Part shown: in pieces, positions 25,555-40,945 of the stretch
How positions within the stretch are numbered: the first letter of the stretch is position 1
Layout: every line of letters begins with the position of its first letter
NCBI RefSeq assembly: GCF_003334765.1
Contig: NZ_QOWT01000014.1
DNA: 64,000 nt
Reading direction: 5' to 3' (one strand)
From: Escherichia coli
GTDB taxonomy: Bacteria > Pseudomonadota > Gammaproteobacteria > Enterobacterales > Enterobacteriaceae
Notes under the pieces: model-generated
What the model was told of the DNA's origin: nothing
Seen by the model: only the letters and a program-made list of their open reading frames with translations
Databases searched by the model: none
Position numbers and translations under genes: made by a program

Positions 25555-25654
25555 CATATTGCTGACAAAGTGCGCTTTGTCCATGCCGGATGCGGCGCGA
25601 ACGCCTTATCCGGCCTACAAAAGTTTGCAAATTCAATAAATTGCAGAATTCATG
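25555..25654. repeat. REP pair with AT-rich central spacer (BIME-1/RIP-type)
   Basis: TGCCGGATGCGGCGCGAACGCCTTATCCGGCCTAC ... GTAGGCCTGATAAGCGAAGCGCATCAGGCA. Confidence 0.85.
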
Positions 25655-25738
25655 TAGGCCTGATAAGCGAAGCGCATCAGGCATTTTTGCTTCTGTCATC
25701 GGTTTCAGGGTAAAGGAATCTGCCTTTTTCCGAAATCA

Positions 25739-30651: not shown

Positions 30652-30663
30652 ACTTCGCATTTG

Positions 30664-30746
30664 CAGGCAGGATAAGGCGTTTACGCCGCATCCGGCATTT
30701 GAGCAGGATGCCTGATGCGACGCTGATAGCGTCTTATCAGGCCTAC
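30664..30746. repeat. REP pair downstream of cpxA
   Basis: AGGATAAGGCGTTTACGCCGCATCCGGCA ... GCCTGATGCGACGCTGATAGCGTCTTATCAGGCCTAC. Confidence 0.85.
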
Positions 30747-36771: not shown

Positions 36772-39530
<2,759 letters not shown>

Positions 39531-39533
39531 ACA

Positions 39534-39753
39534 CTGCCGGATGCGGCGCGAGCGCCTTATCCGGCCTACGGGTCGGCAACAGTTGTAGGCCTGATAAGAC
39601 GCGACAGCGTCGCATCAGGCATTGATTGCCGGATGCGGCACAAGTGCCTTATCCGGCCTACAGGTCGGCAATAGTTGTAGGCCTGATAAGACGCGACAGC
39701 GTCGCATCAGGCATTGATTGCCGGATGCGGCGCGAGCGCCTTATCCGGCCTAC
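39534..39753. repeat. BIME: five alternating REP units in rhaA-rhaD spacer
   Basis: CTGCCGGATGCGGCGCGAGCGCCTTATCCGGCCTAC alternating with inverted GTAGGCCTGATAAGACGCGACAGCGTCGCATCAGGCA; about 80-bp unit repeated nearly identically. Confidence 0.9.
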
Positions 39754-39796
39754 GGGTCGTGCATCCGACAACACCGAATTTACAGGAACACAGAAC

Positions 39797-40621
39797 ATGC
39801 AAAACATTACTCAGTCCTGGTTTGTCCAGGGAATGATCAAAGCCACCACCGACGCCTGGCTGAAAGGCTGGGATGAGCGCAACGGCGGCAACCTGACGCT
39901 ACGCCTGGATGACGCCGATATCGCACCATATCACGACAATTTCCACCAACAACCGCGCTATATCCCGCTCAGCCAGCCCATGCCTTTACTGGCAAATACA
40001 CCGTTTATTGTCACCGGCTCGGGCAAATTCTTCCGTAACGTCCAGCTTGATCCTGCGGCTAACTTAGGCATCGTAAAAGTCGACAGCGACGGCGCGGGCT
40101 ACCACATTCTTTGGGGGTTAACCAACGAAGCCGTCCCCACTTCCGAACTTCCGGCTCACTTCCTTTCCCACTGCGAGCGCATTAAAGCCACCAACGGCAA
40201 AGATCGGGTGATCATGCACTGCCACGCCACCAACCTGATCGCCCTCACCTATGTACTTGAAAACGACACCGCGGTCTTCACTCGCCAACTGTGGGAAGGC
40301 AGCACCGAGTGTCTGGTGGTATTCCCGGATGGCGTTGGCATTTTGCCGTGGATGGTGCCCGGCACGGACGAAATCGGCCAGGCGACCGCACAAGAGATGC
40401 AAAAACATTCGCTGGTGTTGTGGCCCTTCCACGGCGTCTTCGGCAGCGGACCGACGCTGGATGAAACCTTCGGTTTAATCGACACCGCAGAAAAATCAGC
40501 ACAAGTATTAGTGAAGGTTTATTCGATGGGCGGCATGAAACAGACCATCAGCCGTGAAGAGTTGATAGCGCTCGGCAAGCGTTTCGGCGTTACGCCACTC
40601 GCCAGTGCGCTGGCGCTGTAA
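39797..40621 (+). CDS. rhaD: rhamnulose-1-phosphate aldolase
   Basis: Track ORF starts inside BIME; ATG at 39797 gives 274 aa [32 protein letters not shown]. Confidence 0.95.
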
Positions 40622-40630
40622 GGAGCAAAC

Positions 40631-40945
40631 ATGATCCGCAAAGCCTTTGTCATGCAGGTAAACCCCGACGCCCACGAAGAGTATCAGCGTCGGCATAATC
40701 CCATCTGGCCAGAACTGGAAGCAGTGCTGAAATCTCACGGTGCGCATAACTACGCCATCTATCTCGACAAAGCGCGTAATCTGCTGTTTGCCATGGTAGA
40801 GATTGAATCTGAAGAACGCTGGAATGCGGTTGCCAGCACTGATGTTTGCCAACGTTGGTGGAAATATATGACCGATGTTATGCCCGCTAACCCGGATAAC
40901 AGCCCGGTGAGTAGCGAGCTGCAAGAAGTGTTTTACCTGCCGTAA
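40631..40945 (+). CDS. rhaM: L-rhamnose mutarotase
   Basis: 104-aa [49 protein letters not shown]. Confidence 0.93.

Follow-up and report, generated by a model that had tools for sequence, protein, structure and literature searches.

The spacer between rhaA and rhaD in the E. coli DNA analysed here (a stretch of 64,000 nucleotides, referred to as the window) is occupied by a BIME-2, in which 92-bp units, each composed of a Y REP and an inverted Z2 REP, are arranged in tandem and closed by a final Y. Considering all lines of evidence jointly, the array is very probably best explained as a BIME-2 inside the rhaBAD operon which gains and loses whole units, and which would serve as a hairpin barrier in the mRNA, as a partial attenuator of transcription and as a gyrase site. 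The kind of element, the locus and the kind of polymorphism are all already known. The K-12 allele is already listed as BIME-2, and the structure of BIME-2 elements, their targeting by gyrase, their copy-number polymorphism between strains (in general terms) and the REP-specific insertion of IS elements have all been described. Our full-text literature search on rhaA, rhaD and REP together found no paper about this particular element.

The plus strand of the window carries the rhaBAD operon with rhaB at positions 36805-38274, rhaA at 38271-39530, rhaD at 39797-40621 and rhaM at 40631-40945, the names rhaB and rhaM being taken from the RefSeq annotation of syntenic loci. The translation of rhaA (L-rhamnose isomerase) ends with EILSRRG, followed by the stop codon TAA at 39528-39530; the homologous CDS in RefSeq has a length of 1260 bp. 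The gene rhaD encodes rhamnulose-1-phosphate aldolase (274 aa) and starts with the ATG at 39797. The spacer between the two genes (39531-39796) comprises 266 bp, 218 bp of which belong to the REP array (39536-39753). On the rhaA side, the stop codon is separated from the first REP by the 5-nt gap acact (39531-39535, plus strand), which is the same in every dissected allele whose first REP is intact, and likewise in that of strain IAI39, whose first REP is split by IS1397. On the rhaD side, the array is followed by a unique leader of 43 nt (39754-39796, plus strand) with a Shine-Dalgarno-like AGGA at 39784-39787, and every allele ends in this 43-nt form or in a 53-nt variant of it.

A mechanical search for open reading frames starts rhaD further upstream, with a TTG (39626-40621, 331 aa), and thus lengthens the protein by 57 codons at the N-terminus relative to the annotated 274-aa RhaD. 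An earlier note on this DNA had regarded this extension as a spurious product of the array, and the RefSeq records, which give an rhaD of 825 bp, agree with that view. The in-frame extension (39626-39796, plus strand) passes through REPs 2-5 and is non-coding REP sequence. We rejected a coding extension of rhaD because this sequence is missing from alleles with one REP and because the RefSeq start is the ATG at 39797; the 331-aa reading frame is an artefact, and 39797 is the true start of rhaD. Between 39300 and 40000 we detected neither a sigma-70 promoter consensus nor an intrinsic terminator (a hairpin rich in G+C with a run of T behind it) on either strand, so that the array appears to be read through within the operon rather than to form a separate unit.

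Five REPs, with a sequence variant in one unit, had been noticed in this spacer before, and our dissection confirms both points: the order is Y+ Z2- Y+ (Y') Z2- Y+ over positions 39536-39753. Y REP no. 1 (GCCGGATGCGGCGCGAGCGCCTTATCCGGCCTAC, 39536-39569, plus strand), recognized by pattern match, has a predicted RNA hairpin of -21.3 kcal/mol. It is followed by a tail-to-tail linker of 15 nt (gggtcggcaacagtt, 39570-39584), which allele dissection and the BIME-2 definition identify as a short S-type linker, and by the first inverted Z2 REP (39585-39620, minus strand, hairpin of -20.5 kcal/mol), which contains, at 39585-39595, an exact natural target of IS621, GTAGGCCTGAT. The head-to-head linker attgatt (7 nt, 39621-39627), again delimited by allele dissection, leads over to REP no. 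2 (39628-39661, plus strand), the GCACAAGTG variant termed Y'. Then come a variant 15-nt tail-to-tail linker (aggtcggcaatagtt, 39662-39676), defined by comparison of the units, the second inverted Z2 REP (39677-39712, minus strand), identical in sequence to the first and carrying the second IS621 target at 39677-39687, another head-to-head linker attgatt of 7 nt (39713-39719, from allele dissection) and finally Y REP no. 3 (39720-39753, plus strand; pattern match), which is identical in sequence to no. 1.

The repeat unit is not the one of approximately 80 bp that had been proposed earlier, a value too small by 12 bp, but the 92-bp Y+Z2 dimer. Tandem Repeats Finder (TRF) located the repeat at 39535-39759, with a period of 92 bp, 2.4 copies, 93% matches and a score of 415, and a separate repeat search returned the same 92-nt register. 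The two full units, 1 and 2, can be told apart at 5 of their 92 positions. Changes at three of these (39640, 39642 and 39645) convert GCGCGAGCG into GCACAAGTG in the Y' REP, and the remaining two are 39662 and 39672. That such an arrangement arose by chance can be dismissed, since the three Y and two Z2 pattern matches in the spacer compare with an expectation of 0.00 derived from 100 shuffles of the window.

The spacer RNA is predicted to be strongly structured, with a folding energy of -141.9 kcal/mol compared to -99.3 +/- 5.0 kcal/mol for shuffled sequences (z = -8.6). In the minimum-free-energy fold, adjacent inverted Y and Z2 REPs pair with each other to give long hairpins. For the Y hairpin, 8+4 pairs and a tetraloop are predicted, with the inner stem GGCG/CGCC. 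In Y', the innermost pair of this inner stem is changed from G-C to A-T by a compensatory exchange (39640 and 39645), accompanied by a single loop change from G to A (39642), and the predicted hairpin energy is hardly affected, with -20.0 kcal/mol versus -21.3 kcal/mol for Y. Among 50 Y copies from the dissected alleles, the innermost pair is G-C in 15, A-T in 31, G.T in one and A.C in three cases; these counts do not stand for independent events, the copies being related by descent and duplication. Thus, two paired states predominate at this position and both single-step intermediates are rare. The Z2 copies are nearly invariant, 32 of 33 being identical in the dissected alleles.

According to the published definition, BIME-2 elements consist of Y and Z2 REPs joined by short linkers and are repeated several times in tandem, with a copy number that differs from strain to strain (PMC3333891, summarising Gilson/Bachellier). 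The three Y copies of the rha array are imperfect palindromes about 34 nt long (GCCGGATG...ATCCGGC, then the tail CTAC) and agree with the published Y query TGCCGGATGCGGCGTAAACGCCTTATCCGGCCTAC at 31 of 34 positions. The two identical Z2 copies on the minus strand have the form GCCTGATGCGACGCTG.CGCGTCTTATCAGGCCTAC, with an inner stem longer than that of Z1, and share 35 of 36 positions with the published Z2 query. Y and Z2 alternate head-to-head as well as tail-to-tail. All linkers measure either 15 or 7 nt and, judged by length, are of the short S type and not of the long L type with an IHF site. Tandem copies differing between strains are likewise present, with 2.4 copies of the 92-bp unit here and 1-11 REPs elsewhere. 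Moreover, the array is extragenic, and its sequence is repeated in the genome: a 541-bp query spanning it found a median of nine places per E. coli genome. Elsewhere in the window we observed four further Y-type REP sites with a nearby Z-type tail (ATCAGGCCTAC), at 6223-6301, 25585-25664, 30663-30746 and 53970-54049. These are probably two-REP BIMEs, none of them being a multi-unit array.

To survey the locus in other strains, a query made of the flanks only, in which the terminal part of rhaA was fused to the beginning of rhaD, was compared with complete E. coli genomes, and the distance between the two matching pieces was taken as the spacer length. The query matched 5,363 of 5,426 genomes. 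In the other 63, no match to the rhaA or rhaD flank was obtained, and these genomes may lack the locus or have a strongly diverged form of it; two of the flank matches were located on plasmids. Three evenly spaced samples of the ranked matches yielded 167 distinct genomes. Expressed as shares in this collection, not in the species (the database over-represents clinical lineages), nine REPs were found in 24% of them (spacer of 447-460 bp), a single REP in 20% (82 or 92 bp), three REPs in 17% (174-184 bp), five REPs in 17% (263-276 bp), one REP plus a 159-bp boxC-like element in 16% (241 bp), seven REPs in 4% (358 bp), eleven REPs in 0.6% (542 bp) and an IS insertion, either IS1397 or IS621, in 1.2% (more than 1,500 bp). 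The share of 5-REP alleles is probably too low in the sample obtained with the 120+120-nt flank query, which failed to recover the rhaA part in about 700 genomes; at least one of these has a 266-bp (5-REP) spacer.

The expectation that the copy number may differ between strains, voiced in the earlier note together with the remark that an identical unit count in all strains would speak against ongoing expansion or contraction, is thus well founded: the alleles carry 1 to 11 REPs and show 15 different spacer lengths (82, 92, 174, 176, 184, 241, 263, 266, 276, 358, 447, 448, 450, 460 and 542 bp). We dissected 19 alleles in addition to that of the window, with at least one genome per length class. 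The lengths follow the rule 82+92n, or 92+92n in combination with a right flank that is longer by 10 nt, with deviations of 2-3 nt at 176, 263, 447 and 448 bp. In every allele made of repeats only, Y is both the first REP, exactly 5 nt past the stop codon of rhaA, and the last. This constant Y-to-Y layout with fixed ends shows that the array changes by whole 92-bp Y+Z2 units, so that strains carry 1, 3, 5, 7, 9 or 11 REPs. E. coli K-12 MG1655, for example, has nine REPs in a spacer of 450 bp, for which its RefSeq record lists no repeat_region features; removal of two in-register units from this K-12 allele gives the window allele with its five REPs. Such in-register gain and loss of whole units most likely goes back to slippage during replication, or to unequal recombination, between the direct repeats of 92 bp; for BIMEs in general, an involvement of TnpA-REP has been proposed.

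Turnover of the array is recent, since the copy number varies within a single flank haplotype. Among the 45 matches whose flanks are 100% identical to those of the window, the spacer measures 450 bp in 31 cases and 448 bp in one (nine REPs), and 358, 266, 174 or 82 bp in the other 13 (one to seven REPs). Within lineages the lengths are consistent: all sampled O157:H7 strains have 174 bp, while MG1655, HB101, MC4100 and ER2683 share the 450-bp spacer. In BL21(DE3) the spacer measures 174 bp, in Nissle 460 bp.

The alleles of 447 and 448 bp represent genuine sequence variation, due to the loss of 3 nt from one Z2 and to a chimeric REP. Chimeric REPs of two kinds were observed, one in NZ_CP086538.1 (spacer positions 98-133) with the outer stem of Y and the inner stem of Z2, and the other in NZ_CP139177.1 (spacer positions 55-88) with the outer stem of Z2 and the inner stem of Y. 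Both look like products of templated conversion between adjacent inverted Y and Z2 REPs, i.e. of quasipalindrome strand switching. In the 241-bp class (e.g. NZ_AP024114.1, positions 245-405), one Y REP is followed by a boxC-like element of 159 bp with the inverted ends CCCTCACCCC...GGGTTAGGGTGAGGGG, and no Y/Z2 repeat units are present beyond the first REP. A near-full-length copy of this element exists in 827 genomes, and related pieces are found at a median of three places per genome.

Two alleles contain insertion sequences. In IAI39 (NC_011750.1, positions 1484-3000), IS1397, a member of the IS3 family of about 1.4 kb, resides in the loop of the single Y REP with AGC duplicated at the flanks, and rhaA and rhaD are 1,517 bp apart. 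In WP2-W18-ESBL-08 (NZ_AP021933.1, positions 1946-3500), IS621 (IS110 family, bridge-RNA recombinase; 1.3 kb) has inserted at GTAG|GCCTGAT in the tail of a Z2 REP. This site is the same as the published natural target of IS621, ATCAGGCCTAC with a CT core. Besides the two intact IS621 targets in the array (39585-39595 and 39677-39687), the window contains four more, at 6223, 25654, 30736 and 53970.

Outside E. coli, one genome per species was scanned for the N-terminal motif of RhaD, which gave at least 120 loci; the spacer could be measured in 115. Escherichia is represented among the loci listed by the isolate Escherichia sp. ESNIH1 only, E. albertii, E. fergusonii and Shigella lying outside the sample. 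Among the matches listed, rhaA and rhaD are separated by merely 4-25 unstructured nucleotides in Pectobacterium, Brenneria, Dickeya, Samsonia, Serratia, Hafnia, Budvicia, Gilliamella and the Pasteurellaceae; the tight junction is thus ancestral. The spacers of the Enterobacteriaceae among these matches range from 15 to 466 nt, are at least 35 nt long in all but one metagenome-assembled genome, and are usually strongly structured. We inspected seven structured spacers, and each of them is made of the palindromic repeats of its own genus. For example, REP pairs occur in Salmonella and Citrobacter, Klebsiella-type units in Klebsiella, and in Enterobacter cloacae a boxC-like palindrome that is similar to the element of the 241-bp class of E. 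coli. Superficieibacter electus has a direct REP array of 466 bp, and the metagenome-assembled genome UBA5654 a boxC-type array of 400 bp. The slot between rhaA and rhaD has thus been colonised repeatedly within the Enterobacteriaceae.

With regard to function, we propose the following by analogy with characterized REP elements. On induction by rhamnose, the array would be transcribed together with rhaBAD, and hairpins of about -20 kcal/mol, or the longer Y:Z2 hairpins, would form in the message. These hairpins would block 3'-to-5' exonucleases and thereby protect the upstream rhaBA message. At the same time, the array could partly attenuate transcription into rhaD and rhaM, which would bias expression towards the upstream genes. 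Both effects have been described for the REP325 array between yjdM and yjdN, where the upstream mRNA is stabilised and the downstream gene attenuated about 8- to 10-fold in a partly Rho-dependent manner, and where a ladder of hairpin-ended RNAs is produced (PMC4550694; bioRxiv 10.64898/2026.03.23.713779). The first hairpin may, in addition, slightly lower the synthesis of RhaA, as it begins only 5 nt past the rhaA stop codon: REPs located less than 16 nt from a stop codon reportedly stall terminating ribosomes and lower the translation of the gene upstream of them (Liang, Rudd and Deutscher 2015, as cited in PMC12306157).

At the DNA level, the array would represent a transcription-independent cleavage site for gyrase, and its Z2 tails would provide natural targets for IS621. 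BIME-2 elements are known as transcription-independent gyrase cleavage sites which are cut mainly in their Y REPs, and gyrase sites are over-represented in BIME-2. The binding of gyrase by such arrays, to which the earlier note had referred in general, finds support at this very locus. An entry in table DS3 of Sutormin et al. (PMC6379681), based on Topo-seq in a W3110-derived K-12 strain, describes a 401-bp BIME-2 labelled rhaA>-rhaD>; gyrase cleavage sites in this interval are given as 4, 2, 1 and 0 in the four count columns of the table, whose headings are not given here.

Several other readings of the array have to be weighed against this proposal. One is that the count of five REPs merely results from the collapse or expansion of repeats during assembly. 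Short-read assemblers can indeed collapse repeats with a 92-bp period, and the lengths of 447 and 448 bp at first resembled indel errors; these alleles have turned out to be true variants, however. An independent assembly (L004) has a 266-bp spacer identical to this one at every base, strain H2 matches the window at 100% over the 541 bp spanning the spacer, and HS, LS992171, CP158147 and AP045783 combine the same spacer length with flanks that are 100% identical. The consistency of spacer lengths within lineages (O157:H7; MG1655, HB101, MC4100 and ER2683) argues in the same direction, making an assembly artefact extremely improbable. We also consider it very unlikely that the array marks an operon boundary, either as an intrinsic terminator for rhaBA or by concealing a separate promoter of rhaD. 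Stable G+C-rich hairpins directly after the stop codon would be in line with a terminator, but they are not followed by a T run, sigma-70-like sites are missing from both strands between 39300 and 40000, and the distance of 4-25 nt between rhaA and rhaD outside the Enterobacteriaceae fits co-transcription. A partial, Rho-assisted attenuation at the array would rather be a component of the explanation that we favour. A gene of the naRNA4 type, whose product would act with HU as a nucleoid-associated non-coding RNA to condense the chromosome, is suggested by two matches to Rfam family RF02564 on the minus strand, at 39680-39750 (77 bits) and 39588-39658 (76.6 bits), both above the gathering score of 59.5. 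These matches, however, are antisense to rhaBAD; the transcribed plus strand scores 56.5 and 53.2 bits, i.e. below the gathering score, and the promoter consensus is absent from both strands in the interval searched. Furthermore, the RF02564 model corresponds approximately to one Y/Z2 unit of the REP325 array, so that a match is to be expected for every BIME-2 unit. The role of this family in the nucleoid is itself now disputed: a preprint of 2026, one of whose authors comes from the original naRNA4 laboratory, reports that REP325/naRNA4 has no measurable effect on nucleoid compaction (bioRxiv 10.64898/2026.03.23.713779). We therefore regard such a gene as highly improbable at this site. In practice RF02564 picks up BIME-2 units in general, so that automated annotation would report spurious sRNA genes at this site.

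The main rival explanation concerns selection rather than the identity of the element, and is compatible with its assignment to BIME-2. It holds that the array is neutral selfish DNA, a REP/BIME insertion that persists and changes its length by recombination, with no selected role in rhamnose metabolism and no meaningful effect on expression. Such a view would account for the short ancestral spacer (4-25 nt) and for the usual filling of the Enterobacteriaceae spacers with the palindromic repeats of each genus, as well as for the variety within E. coli, where arrays of 1-11 REPs are found along with IS insertions and with a boxC-like element next to the first REP. Against it stands the first Y REP, which was retained in 18 of the 18 dissected alleles without an IS at this place, always 5 nt past the stop codon, the nineteenth being that of IAI39, where it is split by IS1397. 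The pairing of the hairpin is preserved through a compensatory change, and a comparable array, REP325, alters the expression of its flanking genes about 3- to 10-fold at the native locus, and more strongly on plasmids. On this evidence, neutrality seems somewhat unlikely to us, yet worth serious consideration. Constraint on the exact array is weak in any case, as indicated by the IS1397 and IS621 alleles, by the range of 1-11 REPs and by the boxC-like element in about 16% of the genomes. The most far-reaching reading is that the array works as a heritable and reversible dial, the gain or loss of 92-bp units tuning both the transcription that reaches rhaD and rhaM and the lifetime of the rhaBA message, so that the frequent changes in copy number within identical flank haplotypes would be selected and not a matter of neutral slippage. 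We consider this decidedly doubtful; if it were true, lineages with 1, 3, 5, 9 or 11 REPs would differ in the balance between making and cleaving rhamnulose-1-phosphate, and selection would act on this balance.

The BIME-2 reading with whole-unit turnover has practical consequences as well. The spacer is a length-polymorphic site (82-542 bp, or more than 1.5 kb with an IS) which can cause errors in short-read assembly, in PCR typing and in the alignment of pangenomes. On the other hand, the natural series of 1, 3, 5, 7, 9 and 11 REPs on near-identical backgrounds would offer a handy system for relating the length of an array to attenuation and mRNA stability.

Compared to known systems, the rha array shares with the BIME-2 class the alternation of Y and Z2, the short linkers, the tandem copies, the intergenic location, the strain-variable number and, probably, the role as a gyrase target. 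From the K-12 allele listed as BIME-2 it does not differ in kind, but has five REPs instead of nine, with one Y' variant unit. BIME-1 elements (RIB/RIP) likewise contain paired inverted REPs including Y, whereas in their case Y is combined with Z1, the linker is of the long L type that carries an IHF site, and the element is present in single copy; the rha array has Z2, linkers of 7 and 15 nt, and tandem units. IS1397 and IS621 are REP-targeting elements that have inserted into the rhaA-rhaD spacer of other strains, while the window itself is free of IS and merely has the two intact IS621 targets in its array. The REP between malE and malF, which we take to be a single-REP stabiliser inside an operon, may be likened to the first REP of the rha array. 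Single-REP stabilisers and stop-codon-proximal REPs comprise one or two REPs, in contrast to the variable length of the rha array. The stop-codon-proximal REPs, as described in PMC12306157, resemble it in placing a REP hairpin just past a stop codon inside an operon, and the distance of 5 nt in the rha array falls under the <16-nt rule given there. The REP325/naRNA4 array (Rfam RF02564), like the rha array, comprises several units built from the same type of REP and lies between two genes that belong to one operon and point in the same direction, and its unit is nearly identical in sequence to the rha unit (77 bits on a 77-position model). It differs in its opposite orientation to transcription, in the number of hairpins (12 versus 5) and in the head-to-head linker (13 nt in the naRNA4 model versus 7 nt). 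For REP325, the roles as stabiliser and attenuator were demonstrated by experiment, whereas for the rha array they are proposed by analogy.
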